Counted from the first letter of the stretch, positions 15,775 to 41,143 are shown. The stretch: DNA of 47,524 nucleotides from an uncultured Candidatus Saccharibacteria bacterium (GCA_964550325.1 CAZJYT010000001.1:1-47524); one strand, 5' to 3'. Notes: generated from the letters alone by a model not told the origin. Numbers and translations are program-made.

Positions 15775-18700
15775 TTAGTAGAAAGAGCCAATATAACCTA
15801 TGAGAGGCTTCTTAAAGCTTCTTCCTTCTAAAAATGCCAATTCTTTGATTGCTCTGTCAAGTTCCTTTTTAAGTAAAGGAAGTCTTTCCAAGTCTTTCTC
15901 TTTAAGTCTATTTATAGCAATCATCCTTTGTTCAAAGTATCTTTCCCAATCAGCCTTATTCCAGTTTCCTTTATCTCTCCATATCTTGTATTTCTTAAAG
16001 ATTCTTCTCACTCTCTCTTCAACATCACTGGGTAAATTGTATCTTCCAAATTTACTTATCTTCTCTAAAGCCCATCTTAAATCTGGTTGGAATCTCATCT
16101 CTATTCTTTCTCCTTCTTCAATAAATCTTCTTAAGGGATATTTAACAAGATAAGACTTTTCAGGATGAACAGTAAGATACTTAGACTTTGCCCAATCAGG
16201 AAGACTTCTGAAATAGAGAACCCCAAACAAAGGATTTTCCTTTGCTAATCTTATCCAGTTTTCCATTAGCATCCTGTATATCTTTTCCTTAAACCAGTAT
16301 CCTTCATCTGTTTCTGGAACCTTCCAGAACTCCTTAAAGAGTTTCTTACTTACCAATCTACTTAACAACTCACAAGGCTCCTTCTGAAGTATTTCTCTTA
16401 CCTCATTTACCCTCTTTTCCCAAGGTTTGAACCTTCTTCTGTCAAAGAAATAACTTCTTGGTAAAGCCCAAATCTCCCAGAAGTCTAAAAGTTCTGGATG
16501 CTTGTTAAGAAATTCTTCTCTCTCTCCTAAAGTCTCCTTTCTAAAGTATTCCTCCTGTAGGTCAATGAGTTTTGAGAAAAGAGGATGCTGCTTCTTTCTA
16601 AAGTATTCCTTTAGTTCTGGGTTTTCTTTTAGATAGTTCTTTCTTTCTTCTAAAGTTCCTAAAGAGAAGTAGTGTTCTATCATTCTTTCTAATGTGGTTT
16701 TTACTCCTTCCTCTTTCTTGAGATATCTAAAGATTTCTATATTCTCCTCTCTAAATCTTTCTCTCATTAAATAGAACCTTCTTAAACTCTCTAAACTCTT
16801 TCTATCAGGTTTAGATTTTACATCAGGAGCCTCTAAAAGAAGTTTCTGATACTGATAATACTTCTCATAAGCCTCTCTTCTCTTTGGTTCCAGATCTTCC
16901 TTAAAGGATTCTCTTAATTCTGGATGTTCTTCAAGGAAAAGGAACCTTTTAAGATTGTCTTCAAATGTTTCTTTGGGCAAACTGAAATACTCCATTCTAT
17001 CCAAATAGAGTTGCTTCTTCTCTGGATGTTTTTCAAAGAATCTCTCTCTGTATTTCTTATTGTCTTTTCTCCAGAAGTAAGCCTGCCATAAGTCCCAATT
17101 CTCTATCCTTGCCAATGCAGAAAGTCTCTTCCAGAATAGCAGATAGTTGTATGTATCTGGATCCTTCTTTTTAAGTTCCTCTCTTAAAGGCTTAAATTCA
17201 GGCTTCCAGAAGAGTTTAAATCTCTCATCTATCTTTCCTTCTTTGAAGAGTTTATAGAATTCCTCGTAATACTGAATCTTCAATCCTCTTAAGTATGGAT
17301 CTTTCTTTAGATAGGTTTTCTTAAACATAGGAGAAGTTTTAAGGAAAGCCTCTATAAATTCAATAAAGTTTTCCTTTTTTAGAAGTTTATTCCAAGTCTT
17401 ATAGTATTCTTCCTTTTCAGGATGAGTTTTGAAATACATTTCTCTTTCCTTCTTATAGGAAGAATCATAGAAAACTCTCTTCCAGTTTTTCCAATCTCCT
17501 TTGAAAGCAAAGTTAATCCATCTTCCAAGCCATTCATAATATCTTTTCTTTTCTGGATGTCTCTTATAGTATCTCTCTCTGTATTTCTTATTCCTCTCTG
17601 CAAAGAACTCATTTCTCCATCCTTCCCAGTTCTCTTTTTCTGCTAAAAGGGATAATCTTCTCCAAAAGAGTAGATAATTATACTCCTCTGGCTTTCTTTT
17701 CTTCAAATCTTCTCTCAATTCTTTAAATCTATCCTCCCAAAAGAGATCAAAGGTTTCATCTACCTTTCCTTGATCAAGGAGTTCTATAAACCTCTTATAA
17801 TATTCAATCCTTAGACTTCTAATAGCAGGATCTTTCTTAAGATAGAGTTTTCTAAACCATCCTTCAGTTGCTAAGAAGGCTCTAACATAGTCTTCAAACT
17901 CCTTTGTCTTAATGATTTTAATCAATTCAGCCCACTTTTCATAGTATTTTTTCTTCTGTGGATAGTGCGAAAAGTAGGTTTCTCTCTGTTTTTTGTATTT
18001 AGAATCCCAGAATACTTTCTTCCATCCTTCCCAGTCTTCTTTAGAAGCAAAACTCACCCATTTCTGTATCCATTCGTAATATCTCTTCTTTTCTGGATGC
18101 CTCTTAAAGTAAGTTTCTCTCTGTTTGTTGTATTTTCCAGACCAGAAGATATTTCTCCAGGCATTCCATTCATCTCTTGAAGCCTCTCTCATCCAGTTCA
18201 TTACCCAATCCAAATAAGCAAAGGATTCTGGCTGGTCTTTAGCAAAAGCCTCTTTTGCCTTCTTATTCCTTGGATTAAACCACCATCTTAAGGCAAAATT
18301 GGTAAAGATTCCTCTCTTTCGGTTTTCATTATCCTTCTTAAATCTCCTTAAGAGTTCTCTCTTAAAGGGATAATAGAGTCTCTTTAAGGGATGATTAAAG
18401 AAGTAATAACTGATAAACCAAGATGGCATCTGATAGAACCTCTCATAGTAGTCATATCCTCCAGTTCTTTCCATCTCTCTTATCAATTTTTCCCAGAGTT
18501 CTAGGTATTTCTTAATCCTTCTCTCAAATTCCTTATTATAGGCTGCTTTTCCTCTTTCCCATCTTGCCTTTTCTTCTTTTGTAAGAACCTGGTCTAAATA
18601 GCGGAGAGCCTTTTCATAGATTCTTCTCTTTTCTTCTTTTGGAAGTAAAGCAAAATCAGAGGGGAAGAAACTAAAGAATCCTGCTAACTTTATTGAGTAA

Positions 18701-21700
18701 CGAGCATCTGCTTCTCTCTTTCTCTGCTTTTCTAATCTTGACATCATTAAGTAATCGTGGTAATTCTGCTCTGCATTTCTTTCTGCATCTTTCAAAAGAC
18801 TTTCAGGAAGTTTGTATCTCTCTAATAGAATCTCAAGTTGTTCTTTAGAAAGAATCTTAAGGTTTCCTTCAGAATCAAAGAGTTCATAGTATAACTGGTC
18901 ATAATCAAAGATAGGCCAAGGAATATCAATTCCTAAGGCATTGTATCTTAAGTGCTTTTCTTTTTGTTCCTTCTTTGTTCCTTTAGGAAGTTTCTTTAAA
19001 ATTTCATAGACAATAGATCTTAATTTCTGATTCTGAACAAAGATATGTCTTCTAACAGCAAAAGGAGAAAAGGAGTTTTTAAAGTAATCTTCAAACTCCT
19101 TCTTTAATTCAGGATGTTTCTCAAGGAATCTTGCTCCTGCTCCTTTTTCTTCTTCTTCTAATCTGAAGTAGAGATTCACAATAAATCTTTGCTGATACTG
19201 CTTCCAGAGTTTCTGTCTCTTAATAGGATCCTTTTCTGTAAGTATCTTATAAATTGTCCTTCTTGTGGCTACTCGATGGAGTTTTTCTAAAAGTTGAGGA
19301 TCCCTTATCAAGGCTTCTTTCATCCTTTTATCTATCCAATCATAGATCTCCCAGACAAAAGGATCTCTTTTTCTAATTCTTTTAGCAAAGTCATAATAGA
19401 TATCGTGAGGAATTGAGAAATAGAACTGGGAAGCAATAGCCCAGTCATCCCATTCTAAGATGTTCAAACCCAATCCCTTCAAAAACTCTCTAAAAGAAGG
19501 GTTCTTAAAGATAGACAGGTCTTCTAGAGTAGTTCTTCTAAATGAATCTTGTAACTTAAAGAATACTGGAGCAAAAGGAACACTCTGAAGGATAGAGAGC
19601 CAAGGTTTCTGCCACCATTTCTTTGCCTCCTTTCTTTCTTTTTTATAGATTTCTAATCTTTCTATTTCCTCATCTGAATATCCTCTCTCTTTGTATTCTG
19701 TTTCAAAATCCCAGAAATCCTTTCCTGTTGCTGTTTCTATGGCAGAGGAAATAGCAGGATGCCAACCCAAACCTGCAAATAGATGTAATGGATTGTGGAT
19801 AAACTTTCTGGCTACTTCATCAGGCTTAAAGAATAGATCCAAAACATCAAATACAGAGAAGGGAAGACCAATCCAGAGGTCTGTTCCTGGAATCCTTACC
19901 CGAGGAACCAACTTTGCCCATTCTGGTAGATTTCCTTCTTTTTCTGCTTCTTCTAATGCCTTAAAGAGATAGTAATAGGCTCCATAGACCTTAAGACCAT
20001 ACCTTTGAGGAATCTCACGAGCAAAGAGTTCAAGGTTTTTTACATTAAAGGCAAGGAAAGGAAAGAGTCTTCTTAAACTCCTAAAGACCAAATTCATATC
20101 ACTGTAATCAAACAGATACTTCTTTGTCTCCATTGCTGCTTTGGCAATATCATAACCTCTCTTTGCTAACAGAGAATCAAAGAGAATCAGTCTTCTTGCC
20201 TCTTCAAGGAATACAGAGAAAAGTTGAACTTCGTGATTAAAGAGTTTTAAGAATCCTAAATCCTTTGCCAAGGTTTCAAAGGGTTTTCTCAGTTTTTCAG
20301 GTAAAACCTCTTTGGTGCTCTTTGGAAGCCATCCATTTCTAATTAGCATTTTCATTCTTGCTCCTACGTTTCCTGGGTCTTCGAATAACCCAGACAATCC
20401 TCCTGACATAGCAAACTTCTTTACATCCTCAAATTCTTCTGGCTCTATAAGACCTCTTACTCTTCTAATACCTAATTCTGAATACCACTTTTTCAAACTC
20501 TCTGGTAGATATTCTTCCCATTCTCGGATTGGTTTATATCTTGATATTTCTTCACTTAATCTTTTTATTTTCTCTTTCATACTTTCTCCTTCCTTCCAGA
20601 ACTCAATTCCCATCTTCTTAAGAACAGGTTTTAGTTTCTCCCATTTTCTCTGAACTAAAAGCACCCTTGCTGTTTCTCTTAGTTTTAGTCTCTCCCAGTC
20701 AGAAAGAACCTTTGGAATGAAACGAGCAAATACCGCTTCGTGAAGGTCTAAGGTCTTTAGGAAGTTAGATAGGGAGATTCCAGACCAGGTTGCTCTCTCA
20801 AGATCTCCAGCCAGGTTTCTAACATGCCAACCTAGTCTGTAATAGAGGACCCAAGCAATCCATAAGGAAGTAAGACCCCAATAACTCTTCTTTATAAATG
20901 AAAGTGTTTTTCCTACTGTGGCATAGGTTTTGGCAAAAATCTTCCAGAACTCTTTCTGTGCTCTTGGACCAAAACCAACAGGAACTTCTTCTAAAATCTT
21001 TTCACAAATCTTCTCTTCCAGTTCTTCAAAGGTCCTTCGAGGTGCTGTTTTTCCACTTGAAGCAACCATCCAGGTTTCTAACTCACTCTCAATAGAGGAG
21101 AAAAGCTCTTTTATCTCTCCTTCAGGGATTTTTTTCTCTTTTCCAAATTCTAAGAGTTCCTCATAAAATCTCTTCTTTCCCTGTTTTAGATTCTCAACAA
21201 CAGGTTCAAGTTTGTATTGGAGAGAAATATCAGAAGATAAGGCATAGAGTTTCTGTTTGAGAAGTTGTTTATCTCTGATTTTTAGATATTTCTTTAGTCT
21301 ATCTACAATTTTATCTACAAACAGAGGAAATCCAGAGATGAGATTTACAGAACTCTTAAAGACATAGGTTAATATTTTCTGTTCCAAGGCAATGATATTT
21401 GCCATCTCTCTTGTAATTCTTTCTTCAGACCATCCTTGTTTCTTTAATGCCTCTCTTGTTATTCGGTGCGCTCTTTCAAATATCTTCTCTGCTTTTCTCA
21501 TTATCTGTTTAGAAAAGAACTGTCCTAACCATCTCTGATAGAACTCTCTTGTGCTTATCTTTCCTAAAAGCAGAGAGTTAAGTAAGAAGGAAGGAGGTGC
21601 TCCGAAAGGACCCTCTGAGATACACTCAACAGAGTCCCGAATGGTTCTTAAAGTAATGTCTCTTATGTATTCTCTAAACTCGGATTGGGTTCTGAACTTA

Positions 21701-24700
21701 AAGAAATCAGACTTTAGATGAGGAAATTCCTTTTTAAGTCTTTCTAAACTTGGAGACTTTCCTTTTCCAATCTTAAGAAAGAACACAGGATCTCCTCTTT
21801 TTAACTTCTCTCTTAACTCACTAAACCTTATAGGAACAAATCCCTTTGTTATCTTTGCTATTTCTCTGTCTATTGGTCTTGGTTTTTCAGCCAGAATAAA
21901 GAGCCTATTTCCTTGCTCTCTAATAGCATCTAAAGAAGGAATAACAAAACTGGGAACTCTTTTCATCTTTGGGTCAGTTACAAAGACAACAACATCAGGC
22001 TTTAGTTCATCTACAAGTTCAACCGCCTTTTCTATAAATCCTGATTTCTCCATTCTTTCCAGTTCTTCATTTAGAGAGAATGAATATCTTAATCTTTCAA
22101 TAAAGGTTTTAACTGCTCTTCCAGGTTCTATAGGAATTCCAGGGCTTTCAGGAATAGGAAATGCAGGTTTTAGTCCTCTAATCCAGGAGATTCCTTTTAC
22201 CTTGAGTTCTTTTGCAAAGTTATCAATCTCTTGAAGGGTTTTAAGTTCATTAGGATGAAAGTATTTCTCAAAGAGAATTCTATTTATCTTCTCCTCCCAA
22301 TCTTTTACTGCCTTCTTATATGCTCTATCATCCATTCCTGGTTTTCTTGGAAGTTTAAGATAGACATTCTTACCCTGAAGGATTCTAATCTTTGCCTTAA
22401 GGATCTTCTTTACTTCCTCATCATAAATGGGATCTATTAAAGAGCGATAGAACCTATCAGCAGAAGTTATTCTTCCTGTTTCTACGATTTTTATTCTTCC
22501 AATAGTTCTCTCGAATCCTTTTACTACTAAAGCACCTCTTTCTCTCTTAAATTGAGGTTTGGTCTTTAAAAGAATGCCTTCTGAAAGATCAGGCAAATAG
22601 TATCTGGTTGTAGAGATGATATTTAGATCTTTGTCTAATTCTTTTCTTGTTATTTCTTTCCAATTAAGACCAGGGAGTTTTATTTCTCTTACTAATTCAA
22701 CACTGCTATTGAGTTTAAGTGCCTGGTTTAAGTGATAATTAAAGAGTTCTAAAAATTTCTTTCCTTCCAGATTTCCTTTATAGACATTGTAAAGGTTCTC
22801 TAAAGTAAGGTTCTTTTGAAGGAAACGTCTTCCATCCTCTGTTAGAGAAACGAAATAGAGTTTGTTTATAAAGTCTCTTAAGTCTCTTAAGAATCTAATC
22901 TCTCTTGTTCTTCTTCTGACATAAAGGGTTTCTCCAAGTTTCTTTTCATTTCTCAAAACAGCTTTTAGTTCCTTATAATCTCTATCCAGTATCTTAAATG
23001 AGAGTTCATTTATCTTCTTTGCTAATCCTTTAGAAGACTGAATCTTCCATTCTGCTTCTAAAGCTCTCTTTCCTAAATCCTCAACAAATTCTTCCAAGAA
23101 CCTCTTATTTTCGAGTTTCTTTAACTGATTTTCAGTAAATGTAATTTCTCTTTCTAAAAGTTTATCCAAATAAACCTTCTTTTCTCCTCCAACAAGAACA
23201 TCTTTTTCAGGATTAAAGTCATAGATAAGATTTCTAACAACCTTGAAAGTTTCATTTTTAACAAGAGGAGCAAAGAGGTTTTCAAATCCTTGTCTTATTT
23301 TCCCAAATTCTGGAATAAGTTCTCCTTCTAAAAAGAGATAAGGTAAGTTGTTTATAAATTCTGGGGAATTGATGTTCTTAAAGAAGGAAGTTAGAACTGA
23401 AAGACCTAATTCTCTTCTCTCAATTTCTCCTTTTATTTTCTCCAATTGCTTTTCTACCTTCTTTCCTTCTCTTAACCTTCTTATTAGTTCTTCTCTGCTT
23501 CTTATAAGACTCTCCAGTTCTTCCTTTATCTTTCTTACCTTCTCTAGTTGCTCTCTATAAATGCGAATAGAGTTAAAGACATCTGAAGGTTTTAGTCCAT
23601 AGTTCTCTGCTAAATCAAAACCAAATAGAGAAGATAGTCTTTTAAGTTTCTCATCTAATCTAAATCCTTTTACCTTCTCTACTTTTTCTAATGTCTCTTT
23701 TTCTAACTTCTTTATAACTTCCTTTCTCTTTTTCTGAAACTCTGTGAGTAAAGGATTAATTTCTCCCATTACCTTTCCAAAGGATTCTGAAAGACAATAG
23801 ATTTCTAAAGCCAAATCAACCGAAGAAGCCTTCTTGATATCATCTAAACTCCTTACAAGAGAAGTAATTCCTGTGTTGTCTGCAATTGTCTTAAAGAGGG
23901 TATAGGTGTCTCCAAAGAAGTTTGGATCTACTCCTTTTATCTTCTCTATTCTTCCTTCCTCAAAGAATCTCTTACTTAAAGCCGCTTCTTCTAAAGAGAG
24001 GAGTTTTAGTTCAGAGAGTTTTTTAAGATTTCCTTCTCTTATTGCCTTTGAGACTTCAGAAGGATAAGTGGCTCCTACAAGTTTTCCTTGCTTTTGTTGG
24101 GCTTTTAGTTTCTCAAAGGAAATGTCTTTTGTAATTTCTTGTTTCCTTAAGGGAACGAGAATCCCTTTAGATTCAGCCAATCTTCTTCTCCATTTTGGTC
24201 CTTTAAAGATTACTTCCTGAATAGCGGCTCTCCATCTTAAAGCAATTTCTTCTTCAGTTACTCCTTTCAATTTCAGTCTTTCGGTCTCTAAAAGGGTAAA
24301 GAGTAAGTCTCTAATCTCTTTTTCAGAAAGTTTAAGAGGCTCTATAAGTTCTTTAAGGCTTGGATAGAGAGGATGGAGTTTAAACAAGAGGAAGTTATTC
24401 TTTGCTAACTGATAGAGAATCTCCTTTTCATTTTTCTTCTTAATTTCTGAAAAGAAGACAGCATCAGGAGTGATAATTCTAAACCCTCCTATGAATTTCT
24501 TTTTCTTTTTAAGTTTCCCTAATAGTTTCCTGTAGTTATTAATAACGGTAAATTCAAAGTTTCTTATCTCTTTCCAGTGTTTTATCTTTCTGGAGATACA
24601 GTTGGGATCTTTAAAGAGGTAGAAATAAGGATGAGAGATGAGTTTCTTTGTTTCTTCAGGAATGTATCTTGAAATATCTACTCCCATTTCAATCTCTTTA

Positions 24701-27700
24701 GAAAGGATTTCTCTTGGGAATAGATAAGTAACTGTTTTTCCTTTGAGATTTAAGGATTTGGTCTCAATTCTCTTTATAATATCAACTGTTAATGGCTTTC
24801 TTTCTTTGAATTCAGATTTTAGCCTTTCAGCCAAAACCTCCCAGGTGGCCTCCAGTTTCTCTTTAAAGTATCTCTCCATTTCCTTTTTAGGAAATCTCAT
24901 TGGCCAATAGACCGCTCTCTTGGGGAAAACAAGAGGCACCTTTGCTGGTCTCAAAGAAGCATAGGACTCTAAGAGTTTTACCGTCTTTAGAATAGCACTT
25001 CTCAATTGACTCTTATCTACATCCAATACTCGAATCTGGCAGAATCTTAAAGCGATATCAGGAAGTTCTGAAAACTCTATAAGGTTTCCTTTATAGGCAA
25101 ATTCTTCTGTAAGTTTAATGAACCTCTTTTTGATTTCTGGTTTTTTCTCTAAAAGAAGTTTCTGTAAACTGGAAATCCTTGAAGAAACAAGATTTACCAA
25201 TTGATCAAGTTCCTTTGAGGATTCTAACTCTAACATCTCTGCCCAAGGATGTTTCTCAAAGAAAAGACTCTTAAGAATCTTAAGTTGTTCTAAAGGCAAG
25301 CTTCTTTCTTCTGCTACTCTCTTTAAAGCCTTAAAGAAGATTTCTTTGTTTTCTCCTTTCCAGATTCTTCTTCCTTCTAATACATCTCTGATAATTGCCT
25401 CAAAGACATTCTTATTGTGAGGTTTGGTTAAGGCTTTAACAGTTAGAAGGAAACTTAAGATCAAATCATAAATGTTTGAATCAATAAGTTTCTGCTTTCC
25501 TATGGCCCTTACATAGATGAAACTGGATTTCATTGCTTCTACCGTATCAACTTGAGAAAGAGGCTTGAGTTCGAAGGTAGGATCCTTTTCAAACCTCAAT
25601 AAGACCTCAAAGTGAGGAAACTTTTTATCAATTCCAGAGTGTTTTATCTCTTTTAGAAGTTCCTCAGTTCCTTTGGTCTTTCTAAAGGAAGTCTGAATGA
25701 AGTAAGGAACCTCGTCTTTGGTTTCTTTCTCTAAAGGTTTAAAGATTTCTTTTAGGTCTTTGATTAACAAGCCTAATTTTGTCTTTTGAGCCTCTTGTTG
25801 CTTTAGTTCAGAGATAATAAAGTCTCTTAAGGTAAAAGAGAAACTATTAGAAAGACCTCTTTCTGTTCCTAAAACACTTCCTATTGGAATCTTAAGGAAA
25901 TCATTTACAAACTTATAATTTCCCTTAAATAGACTCTGGAAGATAAGTTCATTAGAGTCTCCAACAGAATTGGGATTGTATCTTATTACCAAAGGCTTAT
26001 GTTCTGATTTTATTCTCTCTTTTAGAGAACTTTGTAAAAATCTTATTCCTCTTTCTCTTTCTGCTATTTCTGCTTTCTCCTTCTCTATTCTTCGTAATAG
26101 TCTCTCATAATCTTTAGTCCCTTTCTTAAGTTTCTTTAGTTTTCTTGTTAATTCTTTTATTTCTGCTTTTCTCTTAAGGAATTTGTCTAAAACAGTTAGG
26201 AATTCATCATATTTCTTAATTAGAACCTTTTCATCTCTTAAAACTCCTTCTAATCTAATTCCTTTTATCTTTGAATCTTTAACAAAGACAAAATCAGGAA
26301 GTTCCTTAAGTAAGAAACCTTTTTCTTCTGCAAGTTTATGAATATCTTTCCAGAGTTTCTGATACTCCATCCAGGCATTATAAACTTTAGGCTCTCTGTT
26401 TTTAATCTCTTTTAGATACTTCTTAAACTCCCAGACCTTTATTTCTCCTTTATTTAGTCTCTCTACCTGATCTGCTATGGTCTTTAAAATGGTAAGTCTC
26501 TCTGATCTTTCTACTGTATCTTTCCCTAAATTCTTAATTATCCTCTTTTCCCTTTCTGTAAATTCTCTCAATCGGCTATTAAGTTCTACATTGTTAAGTT
26601 TTCTTTCTCCTTTAAAGGCTCTTGTTATGCTTTCTGCAACTGTTTTCTCATATTCTCTTGTCAGTTCTTCTGCCTTCCTCTTTAGTGTTTCTTTTGCTTT
26701 TCCTTTTGCTGAAAACTGTTTTAATGCTGTTTCAAAGAGTTCTTTGTTCTTAAAAAGCACTTCAGGCTTAAAGAACTTTCTTATTACTGGATTTTCTATG
26801 TATTCCTCTGGTTGATACCTTAATTCCTTATCTAAACCAACCAATAATCTGGTAAAGTTCTCAACAACCTTTTGATCTTTTTTGCTTAAATTCTTCCACC
26901 ATCCTTTTATAGTCTGATCGACAAGAGCAGGGACTTCTCTTAATTGTCTTTCTATTTCTGAAAAGGCAATTTTGTTAGCAAGAGGTAATTCTCTTCTTAA
27001 AACGTTGGAGAAGATGGTAAGCCTTACATCTTTATCCAAGGCTTTGGCAATTTCAGCAAAGGGAGTTTCTTTAAGTTTGTAGATGTGTTCAATATCCAAA
27101 GGCTTGAATCTGAATAGATTATCAAGTTCTATAGCAGCCATCCCTAATTTTGATTCTCTAACTTTCTTTGCCAGTTTTGGCATTACTTCTCCTAATCTTG
27201 TTCCTGCAATCCATCTTTGGGTTTCACTTACAAGCCTCTTTCCTGTCTTCTTCCAAACTATCTTTGCTGGATTTGTATAGGTTACAGGGTCAGTAATAAT
27301 CCAAGGAAGGAAGTTTATTAATTCCTTACTAATAGGAGCCTTTTCTATTATCTCCTTATGTTCTTTCTTAAAGGCATCAATTATCTCTGCCTCAGTAGCA
27401 TTAAAGGCCTTTAGATAGGTCTTAAACTTCTCAAAACTGGAAAGCTCTTTCCATCCTTTCTTACTTATCTCTGAATTAGCAAAGAAGTTTATTGCTGAAA
27501 GTTTCTCTCCTATAGGAAGTTTCTTAAAGTGTTCTTCTACAGTTTCAAGATCCTTTTTGCTTGAAATTCGTATTCCTTGAGATTCTTCAAAATCATACAA
27601 GGTAGCAAGGAAAGCCCTTCCAACATTTGGCAGTTTCTTCATAAAGAGATCTGAAACCTCTTTAGAGGCAAACCAGCCTAACAATCCTCCTATTCCTGCT

Positions 27701-30700
27701 ACAAGCCATCCAGGAGGTCCAGAAACTCCAAGAACAGTAGCAATTCCTCCTGCAATAGCTGAAGCAGAGGTTGCTCCTAAGAAGGTTGGAAAGATCCTCT
27801 TTATGGCTTCAGAAGCAAAGAGTTTCCAATTACTCTTTAGAAGATTGTTAATTTCCTCTCTTCTTTCTCTAATAGCCTTTATCTTCTCTTTAGCAGTTAT
27901 CTCAAAAATCCTTTTACCTGCTATTGTTCCCAATCCTTCAGAGAGAAGTTTTTGCTTCTTCTTAATGAGTTGGTTGATTCTTCTAACAGAATCCTGGAGA
28001 ATCTTAAGATAGCCAAAGTATCTTGTTCTTAATTGATTAAAGAGTTTCTCTTTGTTTTGGAATTTCTTCGTTAAAAGAGGCTTAATAGCGATAAGTTTTC
28101 TTATAAGTTCATCTCTCTTTCTAATAAGAGAATAGAGTTTAGAGATTTCAGGAAGATGTTTTTTAACTTCTATTCCCTTTTTTCTTAATGCTTCCTTTAG
28201 ATACTCTGTTGCCTTATTCAAGGCTTCTTTGTGTTTTTCCTGAAGTTCATTTAGTTTCTTAAGACTCTTTCCTAAAGCAAGTATTTCGTTTTTGTGTTCT
28301 TTTATCCAATTTGCATCTTTGTTTATTATCTCTAAAAGTTCTAAAATTGTCCCTGCTTCTTTATGTTTATTCAGAATTTCTCCAATTCTCTGTTTCTCCT
28401 TTTCAGTTGGTTTTTCCTTACTTAAAAGAGAATAGAATTCAGATAAGACAGGATTAGAGATTAACTTTTCTATCTTTTGTCTATTTTCTTCTATTCTTGT
28501 TCTTCTTCTTTCAAATTCCTGACTAAGAGACCTGTTTTGAGAAAGGAAGTCATTTATCTCTGCTATTTCTTTCTCAATAGGAGCAAGTTGAGTTTTCTCT
28601 ATCTGTTTTTTAATCTCTGAGATATCTTGTTTTAGAATTTCAGGATTAGAGAAGGTTCTTAATGCTTTAAGATTTTGCTCATTTAAGAGATTAAGAATCT
28701 GGTCTTGGGTTTTATCAATCTCTTTCTGAAGTTCTATCATCTCTTGAAGTAATGGATCCTTTCCTACTTCTTTCTGAAGTTCTGTTAGTTCTTTTGAGAC
28801 TTGAGATAAGGCATTAGAATTGGTTTTAATTTTCTCTTTTTCCTTCTCAATTTCTCTCTCTATTGTTCTTATTTCTTCTCTCACTGTCTTTAAACCATAT
28901 CTATCAAATTCCTTTTGAAGTTCTTCTTCTGCTTTTTTAGGATCTTTCTCAAACTTCTCTTGCCATTCATTTAACCACTTCTCTACTTCTTTCTTTCTAT
29001 GTTTCTCTTTTGCTTTTTCCAAGATTCTTCTCCTCTGTTCTTTCTCAAAAACTGAAAGTTTCCTAACAAAGATAGGTTCTTTTAGAAATTCTTCTGTTGA
29101 TTTTCCTAATCCTATTTCAGAAGAGATAAGGAAGCGTGTTGAATTTGAAAACTCTCTCCAGAAATCTCCTATTCCATAAAAAGTCTCTTTTCCTTCTTTT
29201 TCCATTAGATCTAAGATCTTCTTATCAATCAGTTCTGAAATCCTTTCTTTTTGCTCTTTAGAAAGAAATGGATTAAGGTTAGTTAAATTCTTTGCTGCTG
29301 CTAAATTTGCTTGGGAAACCAAAAGAAGGCCTCTTTCCAAGAGAATAGGAAATCCTTCAGTAACTCCTTTTACTGTTTCTTTAATTCCAGAGACAATCTT
29401 TTTCTGAATTTCTCTTGAGGTTTTTGAGAATAAGAGGGTTTCTGTTACTTTTTTGGTTTCTCTTAAAAGAGGTTCTGTTTTTCTTAAGAGAGTTTCAATT
29501 AGTCTTTCTTTTTCTCTTAAGACCTTCTTTTTAATCTCTTCTGGAGTTGGAAGTTTTAAAGCAGTTCTTATCAGTTTCTTTCCTGTTTCCTCTGCCCTCT
29601 TTTCCATCCATTTTCTTAATGGAGAGGGAACTTTAGCAAATTCCTTACTTTTTTCTATTATTGGTCTTATTACTTCTCTTTCTATTGTCTTTTGGGTTTC
29701 TTCTGCTACCTCTTTTGGTGTAGGAATCCTTACTCCTTTTTCTACCATTCTTCTTCCAATCTCCTCTGCTTTTCTTCTTGCTAACTCTTTTAAAGAAGGA
29801 GGAATACTCTTACTAACAAGGCTTTTACTTTTCTCTATTAGAGGATTAATGATTTCAGTTTTGATGCTTTTTTCAGTTTCTCTTGCTACTTCTTCAGGAG
29901 TAGGAATTTTCACTCCTCTTTCCACCAGTTTTCTCCCTACTTCTTCCGCCTTTCTTCTTGCTATTTCTCTTAAAACTTCAGGAACCTTGGCTATTTGTTT
30001 AGCTTTCTCTATTAGAGGATTTACAACCTCTCTCTCTACCTGTTTTTTTGCCTTTTCTACTACTTCTTCAGGAGAAGGAATAGTTATTCCTTTCCTTACC
30101 ATCTCTCTCCCTAATCTCTCCGCTCTCTTTCTTACTTCTTCTCTTAATGAAGGAACTACTCTATTTGCTTGTTGTCTTACTTTTGAGATAAAAGGATCTA
30201 TAACTTCTCTTTCTATCTTCTGTTCTACATTTCTTGCTACTTCTTCTGGAGATGGAGGTTGAAATCCCTTTCTTACCAATTCTTTTCCCAACTTATTTAG
30301 TTCCTCTCTAATCTTTGTTCTAATAGCCCTTCCCCAGTTGGTAAATCTTCCAAAAGCAGAATTAATTGCCTCCCAGATTCCTCTTTGTCTCTCCTCTTCT
30401 TTTCTTCGTTTTTCTTCCTCTCTTCGTCTTCTTTCTTCTTCTCTCCGTCTTCTCTCTTCCTCCGCTCTTCTTCTGGCCTCTTCTGCCTTTCTCCTTGCTT
30501 CTTCTAATCTTCGTCTCTCTGCTTCTCTTCTTCGTCTTTCTTCCTCCTCACGTCTTCTTCTCTCTTCTGCCTCTCTTCTTTTTCTTTCTTCTTCTGCTCT
30601 TCTTCTGGCTATTTCTTCAGAGAGTTTCTGAAGACGGAGTTGTTTTTGTCTCTCTGTTTCATAGGCTTCCTTTTTCTTTCTGAAATGACTTAAGGCTCTC

Positions 30701-31137
30701 TCATAGGCTCTCTGAGTGATGGGACCCCAATAACCTGTAGATCTCACGTATCTTGGAAAGAATCCGTGTTTCTTTAATAAGTCTTGAAAAGCAGCAATCT
30801 CTTTGCTTCTCTTTCCTCTTAGAGAAGGAGCCTTTCTAAAGAGATCCTCAAAGGTAACTCTGAGTTTCTCTACTTCTTTTCTTTCTTTAACGATTTTCTT
30901 TTGTCTTGTTTTCCATTCTTTGTATGCTTTGTAAGTAGGGCTGGAAAGAAACTTAGAAAAGGCTTCTGCTGTTATCTTTCCATAATATCCTGTAGCAGGA
31001 ACAGAAGCAGGAAAGTATCCTCCTTTCTTTAGGAGTTTCTGTACTTCTCTTGTTTCTGCTGACCAGGTTCCCCTTCTAACTTTTCCAGTAGCAGTATAGG
31101 AAAAGAGTTTTGAGATTTCAGGAAAACTCAAAGCCAT
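15775..31137 (-). CDS. giant virion-associated protein (5120 aa): 2x peptidoglycan-binding repeats, R/E tract, tandem repeats, TM cluster; ejection-protein or tape-measure candidate
   Basis: Uninterrupted 15,363-nt ORF, with a 1-nt gap to the upstream ORF and 3 nt to the downstream one. Domains are described in separate features and findings. Confidence 0.8.
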   Translation of the reverse strand: MALSFPEISKLFSYTATGKVRRGTWSAETREVQKLLKKGGYFPASVPATGYYGKITAEAFSKFLSSPTYKAYKEWKTRQKKIVKERKEVEKLRVTFEDLFRKAPSLRGKRSKEIAAFQDLLKKHGFFPRYVRSTGYWGPITQRAYERALSHFRKKKEAYETERQKQLRLQKLSEEIARRRAEEERKRREAEERRRREEEERRRREAERRRLEEARRKAEEARRRAEEERRRREEERRRREEEKRRKEEERQRGIWEAINSAFGRFTNWGRAIRTKIREELNKLGKELVRKGFQPPSPEEVARNVEQKIEREVIDPFISKVRQQANRVVPSLREEVRKRAERLGREMVRKGITIPSPEEVVEKAKKQVEREVVNPLIEKAKQIAKVPEVLREIARRKAEEVGRKLVERGVKIPTPEEVARETEKSIKTEIINPLIEKSKSLVSKSIPPSLKELARRKAEEIGRRMVEKGVRIPTPKEVAEETQKTIEREVIRPIIEKSKEFAKVPSPLRKWMEKRAEETGKKLIRTALKLPTPEEIKKKVLREKERLIETLLRKTEPLLRETKKVTETLLFSKTSREIQKKIVSGIKETVKGVTEGFPILLERGLLLVSQANLAAAKNLTNLNPFLSKEQKERISELIDKKILDLMEKEGKETFYGIGDFWREFSNSTRFLISSEIGLGKSTEEFLKEPIFVRKLSVFEKEQRRRILEKAKEKHRKKEVEKWLNEWQEKFEKDPKKAEEELQKEFDRYGLKTVREEIRTIEREIEKEKEKIKTNSNALSQVSKELTELQKEVGKDPLLQEMIELQKEIDKTQDQILNLLNEQNLKALRTFSNPEILKQDISEIKKQIEKTQLAPIEKEIAEINDFLSQNRSLSQEFERRRTRIEENRQKIEKLISNPVLSEFYSLLSKEKPTEKEKQRIGEILNKHKEAGTILELLEIINKDANWIKEHKNEILALGKSLKKLNELQEKHKEALNKATEYLKEALRKKGIEVKKHLPEISKLYSLIRKRDELIRKLIAIKPLLTKKFQNKEKLFNQLRTRYFGYLKILQDSVRRINQLIKKKQKLLSEGLGTIAGKRIFEITAKEKIKAIRERREEINNLLKSNWKLFASEAIKRIFPTFLGATSASAIAGGIATVLGVSGPPGWLVAGIGGLLGWFASKEVSDLFMKKLPNVGRAFLATLYDFEESQGIRISSKKDLETVEEHFKKLPIGEKLSAINFFANSEISKKGWKELSSFEKFKTYLKAFNATEAEIIDAFKKEHKEIIEKAPISKELINFLPWIITDPVTYTNPAKIVWKKTGKRLVSETQRWIAGTRLGEVMPKLAKKVRESKLGMAAIELDNLFRFKPLDIEHIYKLKETPFAEIAKALDKDVRLTIFSNVLRRELPLANKIAFSEIERQLREVPALVDQTIKGWWKNLSKKDQKVVENFTRLLVGLDKELRYQPEEYIENPVIRKFFKPEVLFKNKELFETALKQFSAKGKAKETLKRKAEELTREYEKTVAESITRAFKGERKLNNVELNSRLREFTEREKRIIKNLGKDTVERSERLTILKTIADQVERLNKGEIKVWEFKKYLKEIKNREPKVYNAWMEYQKLWKDIHKLAEEKGFLLKELPDFVFVKDSKIKGIRLEGVLRDEKVLIKKYDEFLTVLDKFLKRKAEIKELTRKLKKLKKGTKDYERLLRRIEKEKAEIAERERGIRFLQSSLKERIKSEHKPLVIRYNPNSVGDSNELIFQSLFKGNYKFVNDFLKIPIGSVLGTERGLSNSFSFTLRDFIISELKQQEAQKTKLGLLIKDLKEIFKPLEKETKDEVPYFIQTSFRKTKGTEELLKEIKHSGIDKKFPHFEVLLRFEKDPTFELKPLSQVDTVEAMKSSFIYVRAIGKQKLIDSNIYDLILSFLLTVKALTKPHNKNVFEAIIRDVLEGRRIWKGENKEIFFKALKRVAEERSLPLEQLKILKSLFFEKHPWAEMLELESSKELDQLVNLVSSRISSLQKLLLEKKPEIKKRFIKLTEEFAYKGNLIEFSELPDIALRFCQIRVLDVDKSQLRSAILKTVKLLESYASLRPAKVPLVFPKRAVYWPMRFPKKEMERYFKEKLEATWEVLAERLKSEFKERKPLTVDIIKRIETKSLNLKGKTVTYLFPREILSKEIEMGVDISRYIPEETKKLISHPYFYLFKDPNCISRKIKHWKEIRNFEFTVINNYRKLLGKLKKKKKFIGGFRIITPDAVFFSEIKKKNEKEILYQLAKNNFLLFKLHPLYPSLKELIEPLKLSEKEIRDLLFTLLETERLKLKGVTEEEIALRWRAAIQEVIFKGPKWRRRLAESKGILVPLRKQEITKDISFEKLKAQQKQGKLVGATYPSEVSKAIREGNLKKLSELKLLSLEEAALSKRFFEEGRIEKIKGVDPNFFGDTYTLFKTIADNTGITSLVRSLDDIKKASSVDLALEIYCLSESFGKVMGEINPLLTEFQKKRKEVIKKLEKETLEKVEKVKGFRLDEKLKRLSSLFGFDLAENYGLKPSDVFNSIRIYREQLEKVRKIKEELESLIRSREELIRRLREGKKVEKQLEKIKGEIERRELGLSVLTSFFKNINSPEFINNLPYLFLEGELIPEFGKIRQGFENLFAPLVKNETFKVVRNLIYDFNPEKDVLVGGEKKVYLDKLLEREITFTENQLKKLENKRFLEEFVEDLGKRALEAEWKIQSSKGLAKKINELSFKILDRDYKELKAVLRNEKKLGETLYVRRRTREIRFLRDLRDFINKLYFVSLTEDGRRFLQKNLTLENLYNVYKGNLEGKKFLELFNYHLNQALKLNSSVELVREIKLPGLNWKEITRKELDKDLNIISTTRYYLPDLSEGILLKTKPQFKRERGALVVKGFERTIGRIKIVETGRITSADRFYRSLIDPIYDEEVKKILKAKIRILQGKNVYLKLPRKPGMDDRAYKKAVKDWEEKINRILFEKYFHPNELKTLQEIDNFAKELKVKGISWIRGLKPAFPIPESPGIPIEPGRAVKTFIERLRYSFSLNEELERMEKSGFIEKAVELVDELKPDVVVFVTDPKMKRVPSFVIPSLDAIREQGNRLFILAEKPRPIDREIAKITKGFVPIRFSELREKLKRGDPVFFLKIGKGKSPSLERLKKEFPHLKSDFFKFRTQSEFREYIRDITLRTIRDSVECISEGPFGAPPSFLLNSLLLGKISTREFYQRWLGQFFSKQIMRKAEKIFERAHRITREALKKQGWSEERITREMANIIALEQKILTYVFKSSVNLISGFPLFVDKIVDRLKKYLKIRDKQLLKQKLYALSSDISLQYKLEPVVENLKQGKKRFYEELLEFGKEKKIPEGEIKELFSSIESELETWMVASSGKTAPRRTFEELEEKICEKILEEVPVGFGPRAQKEFWKIFAKTYATVGKTLSFIKKSYWGLTSLWIAWVLYYRLGWHVRNLAGDLERATWSGISLSNFLKTLDLHEAVFARFIPKVLSDWERLKLRETARVLLVQRKWEKLKPVLKKMGIEFWKEGESMKEKIKRLSEEISRYKPIREWEEYLPESLKKWYSELGIRRVRGLIEPEEFEDVKKFAMSGGLSGLFEDPGNVGARMKMLIRNGWLPKSTKEVLPEKLRKPFETLAKDLGFLKLFNHEVQLFSVFLEEARRLILFDSLLAKRGYDIAKAAMETKKYLFDYSDMNLVFRSLRRLFPFLAFNVKNLELFAREIPQRYGLKVYGAYYYLFKALEEAEKEGNLPEWAKLVPRVRIPGTDLWIGLPFSVFDVLDLFFKPDEVARKFIHNPLHLFAGLGWHPAISSAIETATGKDFWDFETEYKERGYSDEEIERLEIYKKERKEAKKWWQKPWLSILQSVPFAPVFFKLQDSFRRTTLEDLSIFKNPSFREFLKGLGLNILEWDDWAIASQFYFSIPHDIYYDFAKRIRKRDPFVWEIYDWIDKRMKEALIRDPQLLEKLHRVATRRTIYKILTEKDPIKRQKLWKQYQQRFIVNLYFRLEEEEKGAGARFLEKHPELKKEFEDYFKNSFSPFAVRRHIFVQNQKLRSIVYEILKKLPKGTKKEQKEKHLRYNALGIDIPWPIFDYDQLYYELFDSEGNLKILSKEQLEILLERYKLPESLLKDAERNAEQNYHDYLMMSRLEKQRKREADARYSIKLAGFFSFFPSDFALLPKEEKRRIYEKALRYLDQVLTKEEKARWERGKAAYNKEFERRIKKYLELWEKLIREMERTGGYDYYERFYQMPSWFISYYFFNHPLKRLYYPFKRELLRRFKKDNENRKRGIFTNFALRWWFNPRNKKAKEAFAKDQPESFAYLDWVMNWMREASRDEWNAWRNIFWSGKYNKQRETYFKRHPEKKRYYEWIQKWVSFASKEDWEGWKKVFWDSKYKKQRETYFSHYPQKKKYYEKWAELIKIIKTKEFEDYVRAFLATEGWFRKLYLKKDPAIRSLRIEYYKRFIELLDQGKVDETFDLFWEDRFKELREDLKKRKPEEYNYLLFWRRLSLLAEKENWEGWRNEFFAERNKKYRERYYKRHPEKKRYYEWLGRWINFAFKGDWKNWKRVFYDSSYKKEREMYFKTHPEKEEYYKTWNKLLKKENFIEFIEAFLKTSPMFKKTYLKKDPYLRGLKIQYYEEFYKLFKEGKIDERFKLFWKPEFKPLREELKKKDPDTYNYLLFWKRLSALARIENWDLWQAYFWRKDNKKYRERFFEKHPEKKQLYLDRMEYFSLPKETFEDNLKRFLFLEEHPELRESFKEDLEPKRREAYEKYYQYQKLLLEAPDVKSKPDRKSLESLRRFYLMRERFREENIEIFRYLKKEEGVKTTLERMIEHYFSLGTLEERKNYLKENPELKEYFRKKQHPLFSKLIDLQEEYFRKETLGEREEFLNKHPELLDFWEIWALPRSYFFDRRRFKPWEKRVNEVREILQKEPCELLSRLVSKKLFKEFWKVPETDEGYWFKEKIYRMLMENWIRLAKENPLFGVLYFRSLPDWAKSKYLTVHPEKSYLVKYPLRRFIEEGERIEMRFQPDLRWALEKISKFGRYNLPSDVEERVRRIFKKYKIWRDKGNWNKADWERYFEQRMIAINRLKEKDLERLPLLKKELDRAIKELAFLEGRSFKKPLIGYIGSFY
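17010..18240 (-). repeat. in-frame tandem duplication inside the giant ORF, period 540 nt (180 aa), ~2.2 units, each holding two W-x2-W ... HPEKK sub-repeats
   Basis: TTCTGGATG strings at 18091 and 17551 and ATAGTATT strings at 17941 and 17401 are each 540 nt apart. Peptides KRHPEKKRYYEW(I/L)..W..FA.K.DW..WK.VF.DS.YKK.RE.YF recur. Confidence 0.85.
29470..30312 (-). repeat. five in-frame tandem repeats of ~58-60 aa in the giant ORF (aa ~276-556)
   Basis: Units start ELVRKG / EMVRKG / KLVERG / RMVEKG / KLIRTA. Each contains (I/P)P(S/T)PEEV...EREV(I/V).P.IEK(A/S)K. Confidence 0.85.
30382..30630 (-). repeat. Arg/Glu low-complexity tract in the giant ORF (aa ~170-252)
   Basis: RRRAEEERKRREAEERRRREEEERRRREAERRR... 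Produces the spurious + strand ORFs 30338-30683. Confidence 0.9.
30682..31095 (-). other. two PG_binding_1-like peptidoglycan-binding repeats at the N-terminus of the giant ORF
   Basis: GTWSAETREVQKLLKKGGYFPASVPATGYYGKITAEAFSKF and GKRSKEIAAFQDLLKKHGFFPRYVRSTGYWGPITQRAYERAL fit the G..V..LQ..L...GY......G.(F/Y)G..T..A...F pattern. Confidence 0.65.
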
Positions 31138-31138: not shown

Positions 31139-31633
31139 TTAGTTAAAATCCTTTCTTCTTTTAAGAGAAGATAATAACGAATCTAATTGTTTGTCAAATG
31201 GAAAATAGAGAGTATAGCCTTCCAGTTTTCCCTTTCCAAGTAAATCTCTCTTTATGAAGTAAAATCTTGGTTTGTAAGGATTTTTCTTTTTTAAAATGAC
31301 ACTATTAGAAAACATCTGAGGATAAATTTCTATTACCTTTCCTTCATCCAGATACTTCCTTAAGCCAGAAAAGAGAGTAAGAATAACTGTTTTCCTTTTT
31401 GGAAGTTGAGGATTACGACATACAAAAAGGTATTCTTTGTCTGTTTGTATTCTACTTACCTTATCTGCTTTAGGACAGATTTTAGGAAAAGGATAAGAGG
31501 TTACAATATGAACCTCAAAACCTTGTTTCAGATACTTATCAAGTTCTATCAGATAGAGGTCTGAAGTAAAAACATTAAACTCCCAAACTATGCTTAATTT
31601 AGATTTTAGTCTTTCCCAGGTATTATTTATCAT
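31139..31633 (-). CDS. hypothetical virion-block protein (164 aa)
   Basis: ORF immediately upstream of the giant ORF (TAA-t-ATG) and preceded by repeat copy C. Confidence 0.6.
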   Translation of the reverse strand: MINNTWERLKSKLSIVWEFNVFTSDLYLIELDKYLKQGFEVHIVTSYPFPKICPKADKVSRIQTDKEYLFVCRNPQLPKRKTVILTLFSGLRKYLDEGKVIEIYPQMFSNSVILKKKNPYKPRFYFIKRDLLGKGKLEGYTLYFPFDKQLDSLLSSLKRRKDFN

Positions 31634-31706: not shown

Positions 31707-31707
31707 T

Positions 31708-32589: not shown

Positions 32590-32622
32590 TTAAAAAAGAA
32601 GGAGCCCTATTTCAAGGGCTCC
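32590..32622 (-). terminator. rho-independent terminator downstream of the major capsid gene
   Basis: On the minus strand: GGAGCCC-ttgaaata-GGGCTCC followed directly by TTCTTTTTT, 30 nt after the capsid stop codon. Confidence 0.75.
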
Positions 32623-32652
32623 TTTATGAGAGAGGAATCCTATCGGTCAGAA

Positions 32653-36870: not shown

Positions 36871-36900
36871 ATGCTAAAGTAGAGAGAAAAATCTTGTCAA
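36871..36900 (-). promoter_or_regulatory. putative sigma70-type promoter for the minus-strand virion block
   Basis: Minus strand reads TTGACA (36900-36895), 18-nt spacer, TAGCAT (36876-36871). About 25 nt of leader with AAAGG precede ATG 36846. Confidence 0.4.
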
Positions 36901-36902
36901 GT

Positions 36903-41111: not shown

Positions 41112-41143
41112 CATTTCTTTTCTTTTTAAGAGAAAAAATATAT

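Follow-up and report, generated by a model that had tools for sequence, protein, structure and literature searches.

Phages T7 and P22 have alpha-helical ejection proteins, which extend a tail that is too short to span the cell envelope (PMC8954989). N4 (Schitoviridae) packages a far larger protein in its head, the virion RNA polymerase gp50 of ~3,500 amino acids (aa), and ejects it together with other ejection proteins (PMC13434306). The tape-measure protein gp96 of P23-45, which is mostly helical, reaches 5,002 aa and contains a fused virion RNA polymerase (PMC10770324). Here, we analyzed a stretch of 47,524 nucleotides (nt) assigned to an uncultured Candidatus Saccharibacteria bacterium (GCA_964550325.1, CAZJYT010000001.1:1-47524; hereafter, the window), in which a single gene encodes a protein of 5,120 aa, referred to below as the giant. 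On balance, we lean towards reading the giant as an internal virion protein (an ejection or pilot/cargo protein) of a thermophilic, short-tailed phage. It is larger than the N4 virion polymerase and comparable with the P23-45 tape measure; in its mode of action it would be closest to the podovirus ejection proteins and in scale to the N4 polymerase, with no detectable membership of any of these families.

Several traits of the T7 (gp14-gp15-gp16) and P22 (gp7, gp20, and gp16) systems recur at this locus. As in those phages, the gene belongs to what appears to be the late structural operon of a short-tailed phage, and its product is alpha-helical where it was modelled. The terminator after the capsid gene is placed like Tphi of T7, which follows gene 10 ahead of the tail and internal-protein genes. 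As in T7 gp16, the N-terminal domain is predicted to be directed at the cell wall, and a membrane-type segment is present in this phage. The differences concern size, chemistry, and order: one polypeptide of 5,120 aa stands here against three T7 proteins totalling ~2,260 aa; T7 gp16 carries a lytic transglycosylase, whereas the giant and its relatives carry PG_binding_1 or LysM binding domains; and the giant gene lies before the adaptor and nozzle genes and includes a hypervariable middle that has no counterpart in T7 or P22. When the profile of the giant's most conserved core was compared by hhalign with T7 gp15 and gp16 and P22 gp7, gp16, and gp20, all probabilities were <1%. This is a weak test, because podovirus ejection proteins share <10% identity (PMC8954989). 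The hhalign comparisons of the family profiles with T7 gp11 and gp12, P22 gp4 and gp10, and Jasmine gp24 and gp25 were all negative.

N4 gp50 resembles the giant as a very large podovirus protein with a modular N-terminal, central, and C-terminal design, but no homology and no polymerase motifs were detected here, and the giant is ~1.5 times longer. The gp96 proteins of P23-45 and P74-26 are similar to it in size, in their thermophilic host setting, and as giant virion proteins able to hide an enzyme; they differ in that there is no sequence similarity and that the present locus has a nozzle-like partner and lacks both a siphovirus tail module and a DxDxD motif. Neither the motifs nor the family or PDB sequence matches expected of the known types of virion RNA polymerase (N4 gp50, crAss-like gp66, and P23-45 gp96) were found in the giant. 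By our estimate, gp50 takes up ~15% of the N4 genome, against ~31% for the giant.

The giant gene

The giant gene accounts for 32% of the window and for 31% of a 50,076-bp contig of the same phage. Its product has a net charge of approximately +298 and no predicted signal peptide. Only 1 nt (TAA-T-ATG) separates it from the 164-aa gene upstream and 3 nt from the 1,077-aa gene downstream. A first-pass annotation, made from the sequence alone, had described an unbroken 15.4-kb open reading frame (ORF) of 5120 aa that filled about a third of the window and was closely coupled to both neighbours; the ORF call, both spacers, and the independent assemblies all agree with that description. At least five samples yielded independent assemblies of this phage, and the window differs from the other contigs by 0.1–1.0%, indicating that it is a separate assembly; its identity to assemblies from other samples is 99.5–99.8%. 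The 5,120-aa product was also called on an ENA contig from ERZ27248349, in which codons 1–2828 and 2865–5121 are open; 43 synonymous and 11 non-synonymous codon differences separate it from the window, and the latter are conservative (nearly all K/R, I/V, or similar). In ERZ27248172, the first 2,828 codons contain 45 synonymous and 12 non-synonymous differences. The ORF is unbroken in three independent assemblies, and the synonymous excess in the independent contigs shows that it is a real translated gene under purifying selection. Assembly collapse is unlikely, because the internal repeats are just 45–56% identical at the protein level. The orthologues are likewise single giant ORFs, and none is divided into several genes, a possibility that the first-pass annotation had raised.

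The IVYWREL proxy, calculated on the other proteins of the window, gave ~66 °C, which indicates that the K/E/R richness of the giant is at least partly a thermophilic bias. The earlier description of about 3000 aa of helical, K/E-rich sequence holds for the composition; helicity was modelled solely for aa 3420–4300, and with low confidence. In that AlphaFold2 model (pLDDT 61, pTM 0.30), the stretch is all alpha-helical and broken into many short helices, with Gly and Pro together making up ~8% of it throughout. Foldseek searches with the model returned helical noise only (ClyA and F-BAR, E>1), and no fold conclusion was drawn from them.

Domain architecture

The N-terminus of the giant contains two related segments, aa 22–66 and 107–151, which are 49% identical in self-BLAST, and PF01471 matches aa 27–59 with 32 bits against a gathering cut-off of 23 (E=1.4e-7). 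Pfam, PHROG, and self-similarity thus converge on the two PG_binding_1-like repeats proposed in the first-pass annotation at aa ~15–152 (Table 1). The charged tract that it placed at aa ~170–252 is present in the translation at aa ~166–252. By analogy with ER/K helices, whose properties are established, this tract may form a single-alpha-helix spacer of ~12 nm. Next, the motif P(T/S)PxEV occurs at aa 295, 354, 412, 472, and 530, a spacing of 58–60 aa that agrees with the five repeats of ~58–60 aa recognized at first reading (aa ~276–556). One copy of this motif lies near aa ~175 in three relatives, and the five-repeat region has a weak profile match to the family N-terminus. The Gly/Ala-rich segment at aa 1115–1158 is the only strongly hydrophobic, charge-free part of the giant. 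It corresponds to the double transmembrane segment of the first-pass annotation, which is real in this phage but does not extend to the family: the giant homologues lack it, and a transmembrane hairpin was rejected as a family trait.

Towards the C-terminus, two copies of a 180-aa unit are offset by 180 aa and 51–56% identical, as the first-pass annotation had noticed in a region rich in HPEKK motifs (here at aa ~4286–4711). HPEK occurs five times, at aa 4347, 4527, 4572, 4704, and 4991. The occupancy of the family alignment falls to ~0.5 over the duplication, suggesting that it is lineage-specific and that this phage has an extra copy.

Domain scans were run on ten overlapping 600-aa tiles against Pfam (E<=0.1), PHROGs (E<=0.01), and NCBIfam (E<=0.05). 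Beyond aa ~165, these scans and PDB sequence searches gave no match, and a motif scan found no DxDxD, DxDGD, R...K...YG, Walker A, HExxH, or other catalytic motif, in keeping with the initial failure to recognize any hydrolase or polymerase domain. No match to the giant was obtained by tblastn against GenBank phages, in IMG/VR with single-protein queries, or among PDB sequences. A word-indexed search with aa 1101–2300 also returned nothing, probably because low-complexity words swamped it.

A family of giant homologues

An exhaustive HMMER search with aa 3301–4400 as the query returned 56 proteins, of which 27 reached E<=1e-10. Among the latter, 20 are 4,312–5,943 aa long and 25–31% identical to the giant in the matched stretch. 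The family members (P0001–P0024) span 3,032–5,943 aa, form at least 20 clusters at 50% identity, have a G+C content of 32–49%, and come from sources that range from vent to non-thermal samples. In BLAST alignments, the homologues are collinear with aa ~3400–5120 up to the final residues, and invariant aromatic, Pro, and Gly positions occur throughout the alignment of this ~1,700-aa C-terminal module. Upstream of aa ~3400, no independently significant similarity to the relatives was found, although the full-length profile aligns collinearly. Two shorter members (3,032 and 3,145 aa) retain the C-terminal module, indicating that the middle region varies in length as well as in sequence, and P0024 also has a PG_binding_1-like N-terminus.

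LysM was detected by Pfam in eight of the ten relatives scanned, and the PG_binding_1 N-terminus is found in this phage, P0013, and P0024. Peptidoglycan binding at the N-terminus therefore appears to be conserved as a function across two unrelated folds, and this predicted module is the strongest functional clue that the sequence offers. In the variable middle of three relatives (P0016, P0019, and P0020), a DnaQ motif (DTETTG or DIETTG) lies at aa ~1700–1800, and RNase_T was matched by Pfam in two of the ten relatives scanned, a set that included P0016 and P0019. Because a DnaQ/RNase_T 3'-5' exonuclease motif sits there in three relatives, the middle slot can house enzymes. Two other candidate features were discarded: basic charge as a conserved DNA-binding property, since the isoelectric points (pI) of the relatives are 7.0–9.6, and a possible RNA polymerase motif (DFDID) in relative P0015, since it lies in an acidic low-complexity loop. 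The giant of the window has the C-terminal module, the N-terminal wall-binding module, and the synteny with ~210-aa and nozzle-like genes that mark the family, which is new, widespread, entirely metagenomic, and uncharacterised.

The most conserved part of the C-terminal module, a core of ~130 aa (aa ~3640–3780), also matches ~30 further proteins of 400–2,750 aa, in which it lies ~70–80% along their length. One of them, P0028 (1,034 aa), is encoded in a module consisting of a SU10-like adaptor (a weak match), a 751-aa protein, five small genes, P0028 itself, a 106-aa gene, and an amidase, and its place corresponds to that of gp16 in T7 and of genes 7, 20, and 16 in P22. The profile of these small proteins matches a 1,783-aa protein of Cellulosimicrobium phage DS1 (QSJ04773.1) at E=7e-16 in a hidden Markov model search; that protein in turn has a homologue in Arthrobacter phage Jasmine, gp29 (E=5e-27). 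Jasmine gp29 (1,803 aa) is the product of the largest and last gene of the virion module, which the lysin and holin genes follow directly. Electron microscopy (EM) identifies Jasmine as a podovirus whose head measures 60 nm and whose tail measures 10 nm (PMC5513430).

The likeness among these proteins lies in the core (F.Y.D...R..FPF..F), which is shared directly with the giant by the metagenomic proteins of ~1,000 aa (P0028–P0056), by DS1 through the small-protein profile, and by Jasmine gp29 through DS1, and in their location in podovirus tail or internal-protein modules beside lysis genes. A direct match of the giant profile to Jasmine gp29 was not significant, so the link to Jasmine is a homology chain only. 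These proteins differ from the giant in being 3–5 times shorter, in sharing only the core and not the ~1,700-aa module, and in having no reported N-terminal peptidoglycan-binding domain; all are annotated as hypothetical, so that no function can be transferred from them. Judging from these matches, the core of the giant seems to recur in proteins of ~1,000–1,800 aa at the ejection-protein position of podovirus-type modules.

Structural cassette and evidence for a short tail

The gene order around the giant was drawn from the contexts of three full-length homologues and ~24 further loci. In the ~24 loci, the giant, always one continuous ORF, is followed by a ~210-aa gene and then by a protein of 750–1,020 aa. 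The full cassette comprises, in this order, the capsid gene, a ~140-aa gene, the giant, the ~210-aa gene, in some cases a further small gene, the 750–1,020-aa protein, a ~230-aa gene, and fibre-like proteins. The relative L010 carries a GpA-type terminase, an 842-aa protein, scaffold-like genes, an SU10-like capsid gene, a 143-aa gene, and then the giant; downstream of it come genes of 211 and 752 aa, an HNH gene, and the gene of a 642-aa tail fibre. In the window, this cassette is rearranged: the homologue of the ~210-aa gene has moved, and the giant and nozzle genes are separated by a candidate portal-ligase gene.

The 860-aa member of the 750–1,020-aa family was modelled from a 14-sequence alignment (pLDDT 58, pTM 0.49). 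The model has confident beta-propeller blades at residues 86–170 and 355–560 and a C-terminal domain, with a low-confidence inserted region at aa ~175–354. Many of the 50 Foldseek matches listed from the PDB are generic propellers. The phage matches among these 50 are podovirus tail complexes of Kp7 (7y22_Y, E=8e-9), Pa223, and P22, with 9jg6_a and 9nwi_Y included, and the tail of phage E1004. The top BFVD match was 'Stabilization protein [Podoviridae]' (E=3.5e-13, target TM-score 0.48), and the named BFVD matches were mostly 'P22 Gp10 DNA-stabilising', 'tail tubular protein B', and 'tail knob'. On this model, the 860-aa protein is a candidate podovirus nozzle of the tail tubular B or P22 gp10 type. 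Sequence-profile comparisons of its family with T7 gp12 and P22 gp10 were negative, so the assignment is structural only.

Other signals point the same way. Distant tblastn relatives of the capsid protein include the capsids of Mx8 and BUCT555, which we take to be podoviruses. In the proteins of the window, Pfam, PHROGs, and NCBIfam gave no signal of a tail tube, tail terminator, chaperone, Dit, Tal, or tape measure, and no frameshift-extended or overlapping frameshift ORF was found upstream of the giant. The gap between the capsid and giant genes holds one to three small genes (the single 143-aa gene in L010). These scans bear out the first-pass observation that tail tube and chaperone-frameshift genes were not visible and that only three small genes separated the giant from the capsid gene. 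With the nozzle-like cassette, the capsid relatives, and a tailspike gene, the podovirus status is assigned by structure and context, not by morphology, and the lineage is likely short-tailed. We know of no short-tailed phage with a tape measure.

Proposed function and alternative explanations

The late operon behind a terminator, the peptidoglycan-binding N-terminus, the helical stretch, and the synteny with nozzle-type genes lead us to a model of packaging and ejection. A few copies of the giant would be packaged inside the capsid together with the DNA. At infection, they would be threaded in a mostly unfolded state along the channel that the portal and nozzle form. The tandem PG_binding_1 domains, carried on the E/R single-helix spacer, could then latch onto the sacculus, and in this phage the Gly/Ala hairpin could insert into the membrane. 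The long helical body would lengthen a tail of the 10-nm class so that it crosses the envelope, serving the DNA as a channel or an escort, and one chain would do the job of T7 gp14, gp15, and gp16. The variable middle may be an evolvable spacer or may contain lineage-specific cargo, such as the exonuclease motif of the three relatives, with nothing recognizable in this phage. The C-terminal module may be needed for virion incorporation or docking, or for a common cytoplasmic step. The preference of the first-pass annotation for an ejected, wall-engaging internal protein over a tape measure thus gains indirect support from the nozzle-like partner, the absence of tape-measure and long-tail signals from the scans, the podoviruses among the capsid relatives, the link through the core, and the wall-binding N-terminus; the membrane segment in its picture is not shared by the family, and packaging and ejection are what we infer.

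Several observations weigh against an ejected internal protein. The virion location and ejection of the giant are deduced from sequence, models, and genomic context. The giant has no similarity to T7 gp15 or gp16, to P22 gp7, gp16, or gp20, or to any GenBank phage protein, and contains no peptidoglycan hydrolase domain or motif, unlike T7 gp16. Its gene precedes the adaptor and nozzle genes, the reverse of the order in T7 and P22. The model of its core is poor and without a fold match, the nozzle call comes from a medium- to low-confidence model of a common fold with negative profile comparisons, the membrane hairpin is not kept in the family, and the link to Jasmine gp29 is a chain of three steps.

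A more far-reaching version of the ejection model, which we regard as speculative, is a one-protein ejectosome with a cargo bay, in which one polypeptide of 3,100–5,900 aa would replace the multi-protein trans-envelope channel of podoviruses, and the injected middle would vary by lineage. The wall anchor would then be N-terminal and the ~1,700-aa machine C-terminal, with a fast-evolving region of ~2,000–3,000 aa between them; in this phage, an unrecognized role in replication, transcription, or anti-defence could be hidden in the middle.

The best surviving alternative, although a doubtful one, is an external appendage: a long helical fibre or whisker anchored by the C-terminal module, with the N-terminal domains as a distal wall adhesin for a host with an exposed wall. 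The giant lies in the structural operon beside nozzle, tailspike, and fibre genes; LysM or PG_binding_1 is at the opposite end from the conserved module; the variable middle and a total length of 3,145–5,943 aa would suit a spacer; and the ~1,000-aa relatives have in their core a weak match to PHROG 19395 ('tail fiber; host specificity'). A fibre of this kind is difficult to reconcile with a modelled stretch of many short helices, ~8% Gly+Pro, and no continuous coiled coil, or with the lack of Ig, beta-helix, or collagen-like modules in the giant. A separate tailspike is encoded here and fibre genes in the relatives, the exonuclease motifs of three relatives would make no sense outside a cell, and the core-bearing proteins of Jasmine and of L011 occupy the internal-protein position beside lysis genes.

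We consider it improbable that the giant is a packaged enzyme carrier, that is, a virion polymerase or a polyvalent protein for host takeover with a divergent catalytic domain in its ~2,300-aa middle, of the kind seen in N4, crAss-like phages, or P23-45; this explanation extends the ejected-protein reading and does not exclude it. The window has no other polymerase-sized ORF, three relatives have the DnaQ motif in the variable region, RNase_T was matched in two of the ten relatives scanned, and cryptic RNA polymerases in giant virion proteins provide a precedent (PMC10770324, PMC13434306). The absence of catalytic motifs from the scan, and of any Pfam, PHROG, NCBIfam, or PDB sequence match from aa 600–5120, speaks against such an enzyme; the middle is not conserved among the relatives, which disfavours an essential one, and the single DFDID, present in one relative, is in a low-complexity loop.

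Still less probable is a non-virion late protein whose gene only happens to lie in the structural operon, for example an intracellular scaffold, an assembly chaperone, or a factor that resembles a compartment or the cytoskeleton. The presence of the giant in particles is indeed inferred, the protein is very basic and helical, and it has no homology to known virion proteins among GenBank phages and PDB sequences. In every relative, however, strict synteny ties the gene to those of the capsid, the adaptor-like protein, and the nozzle-like protein; in the cytoplasm, there would be no peptidoglycan for the N-terminus to bind, and no signal peptide is present; the strong basic charge is not conserved; and 31% of a genome would be hard to maintain for a non-structural accessory.

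Least probable of all is the tape measure of a very long-tailed siphovirus (~0.77 um at 1.5 A per residue) with the ~210-aa protein as Dit and the ~860-aa protein as Tal, since, for all that the giant equals in size the 5,002-aa protein of P23-45, another thermophile phage (PMC10770324), combines helical sequence, tandem repeats, a Gly-rich hydrophobic segment, and a cell-wall domain as known tape measures do, and precedes genes of ~210 and ~800 aa in the size pattern of tape measure, Dit, and Tal, none of its ten tiles matched a tape-measure family in Pfam, PHROGs, or NCBIfam, the GenBank phage set contained no match to it, tail tube, terminator, and frameshifted chaperone genes are missing (only one 143-aa gene fills the capsid–giant gap in L010), the 860-aa protein resembles podovirus nozzles rather than Tal or a hub, cultured capsid relatives include podoviruses, and the core is common to podovirus-type module proteins in a chain that reaches a podovirus verified by EM.

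The most likely role of the family is that of ejection proteins, taken on at an unprecedented relative cost and with wall-binding in place of lytic domains. If the giant is indeed ejected, the ejection-protein strategy has been stretched far, in that a phage of ~50 kb puts nearly a third of its coding capacity into one injected protein of 613 kDa. This would raise the questions of how many copies a capsid holds, how a chain of 5,120 residues threads through a nozzle, and what the ~1,700-aa module and the hypervariable middle do. Because the family is entirely uncharacterised, a single structure or proteome would bring annotation to viral dark matter amounting to thousands of kilobases, and a helical phage ORF of several thousand residues should not receive the tape-measure label by default.

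Other features of the window

Table 1. Positions of the giant gene, its parts, and other annotated features, numbered from the first nucleotide of the window
Feature	Coordinates	Strand	Basis or remark
GT1-type glycosyltransferase	3622..4623	plus	
S-adenosylmethionine (SAM) methyltransferase	4596..5228	plus	
Cas4-like PD-(D/E)XK nuclease	6560..7204	plus	
627-aa ORF	8078..9961	minus	intein-like insertion at aa ~124-457
860-aa nozzle candidate	9963..12545	minus	homologue of the 750-1,020-aa protein; lies 1-2 genes past the giant in every relative
1,077-aa protein	12538..15771	minus	candidate portal (N-terminal ~660 aa) and ATP-dependent DNA ligase adenylation domain (aa 767-953)
Giant ORF	15775..31137	minus	ATG start, 5,120 aa, one terminal stop, 613 kDa, pI 9.7
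Conserved C-terminal module (aa ~3401-5120)	15778..20937	minus	collinear as far as the final residue in every giant homologue
Aromatic-rich W/F/Y HPEKK repeat region, 180-aa tandem duplication (aa ~4286-4711)	17005..18282	minus	self-comparison
Most conserved core (aa ~3640-3780; E..RR...F.Y.D...R..FPF..F)	19798..20220	minus	shared with ~400-1,800-aa proteins of other podovirus-type phages
Hypervariable middle (aa ~1159-3400)	20938..27663	minus	no recognizable domain, no independently significant homology to relatives
Gly/Ala-rich charge-free hydrophobic hairpin, 44 aa (aa 1115-1158)	27664..27795	minus	specific to this phage
Five tandem ~59-aa repeats (aa ~276-586)	29380..30312	minus	P(T/S)PxEV motif
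E/R(K) charged tract (aa ~166-252)	30382..30642	minus	read from the translation
PG_binding_1 repeat 2 (aa ~97-152)	30682..30849	minus	PHROG endolysin matches at aa 97-147 and 109-164; self-similarity
PG_binding_1 repeat 1 (aa ~15-68)	30934..31095	minus	Pfam PF01471; PHROG endolysin wall-binding region; self-BLAST
164-aa gene	31139..31633	minus	translationally coupled to the giant, 1-nt spacer
135-aa gene	31708..32115	minus	weak member (E=1e-3) of the ~140-aa family just upstream of the giant in relatives
Intrinsic terminator	32599..32624	minus	strong; immediately 3' of the capsid gene; 10-bp stem with 6 G-C pairs, T-run
Major capsid protein, HK97 fold type, SU10-like	32653..33720	minus	phrog_9953 E=1.6e-22; weak SU10_MCP match
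428-aa right-handed beta-helix tailspike	35268..36554	minus	Pfam Beta_helix E=7e-21; PHROG tail spike
GT1-type glycosyltransferase	36894..37964	plus	
Terminase large subunit, GpA-type	39414..41111	plus	phrog_675 E=4.5e-64; GpA_ATPase E=3.4e-23
220-aa homologue of the ~210-aa gene	41108..41770	plus	adaptor candidate, by position only
GT1-type glycosyltransferase	43587..44666	minus	
Endolysin	45053..46213	minus	N-terminal Amidase_3 (E=1.7e-27)

The terminator behind the capsid gene is likely to attenuate transcription into the giant and so to reduce its expression compared with that of the capsid protein. The three small ORFs between the capsid and giant genes (31139–32565, minus strand) are rich in Phe, Leu, Ser, and Cys, and only the 135-aa ORF has homologues, which are weak ones. 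Together they contain seven synonymous and four non-synonymous variant sites, too few to judge selection. The G/C and A/T skews are near zero at 31–33 kb, unlike in the remaining minus-strand block.

Over its N-terminal ~660 aa, the 1,077-aa protein next to the giant has a homologue in L010, the 842-aa protein encoded after the terminase at the position of a portal gene; the L010 protein has only a faint PHROG portal match (E=0.07). The DNA ligase adenylation domain at aa 767–953 was identified by Pfam (E=1.9e-13). The same portal-ligase fusion (1,162 aa) occurs in relative L007, and the nearest phage ligase match to the 1,077-aa protein is from the archaeal virus ANMV-1.

The 627-aa ORF has a LAGLIDADG_3 match in its intein-like insertion and PHROG matches to intein-bearing RNR, ThyX, and PhoH. 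The structural region of L007 encodes a 323-aa protein that lacks the intein and is 44–51% identical to the two extein halves. A resemblance of the extein to a LigD phosphoesterase found no support, since the intein-less homologue has no Pfam match. Other signs of mobile elements were seen in the relatives: L007 has a 164-aa ORF (9517–10011) with a putative HNH-like motif, recognized by eye, between the ~140-aa gene and the giant, and L010 has a 231-aa ORF after the nozzle gene with PHROG matches to HNH and homing endonucleases. Mobile endonucleases appear to have targeted the cassette often.

The phage encodes three glycosyltransferases, a methyltransferase, and a nuclease. The giant aside, no ORF in the window is large enough for a polymerase, primase, or helicase; the only other ORFs of >400 aa are those of the terminase, the tailspike, the nozzle candidate, the portal-ligase protein, and the intein-bearing 627-aa gene. 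This combination suggests that the phage modifies its virion or DNA and depends on host replication. No tRNAs were found in the window. In the endolysin, a coiled-coil tail of ~200 aa replaces a wall-binding domain and yields spurious PHROG matches to tape measures and SbcC.

In the 100-kb relative L009, a gene for a DNA-binding protein of the HU/IHF type (PF00216; 31498–31770) lies within the tail-gene block, an arrangement that we take to be similar to that of crAss-like phages; searches with the terminase and capsid proteins gave no pointer to Crassvirales. The sole match in the genome collections was a 52-kb contig binned in a WOR-3 metagenome-assembled genome (MAG). Homologues of the nozzle gene include P0096 (HPJ86541.1), P0098 (HRT03579.1), and one on L054 (JAGMCN010000046.1), which also has a giant gene. 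The MAG labels of their contigs are Candidatus Pacearchaeota, Candidatus Diapherotrites, and candidate division WOR-3. Such contigs are probably phage DNA misbinned into small or low-G+C genomes, and a WOR-3 host is possible.

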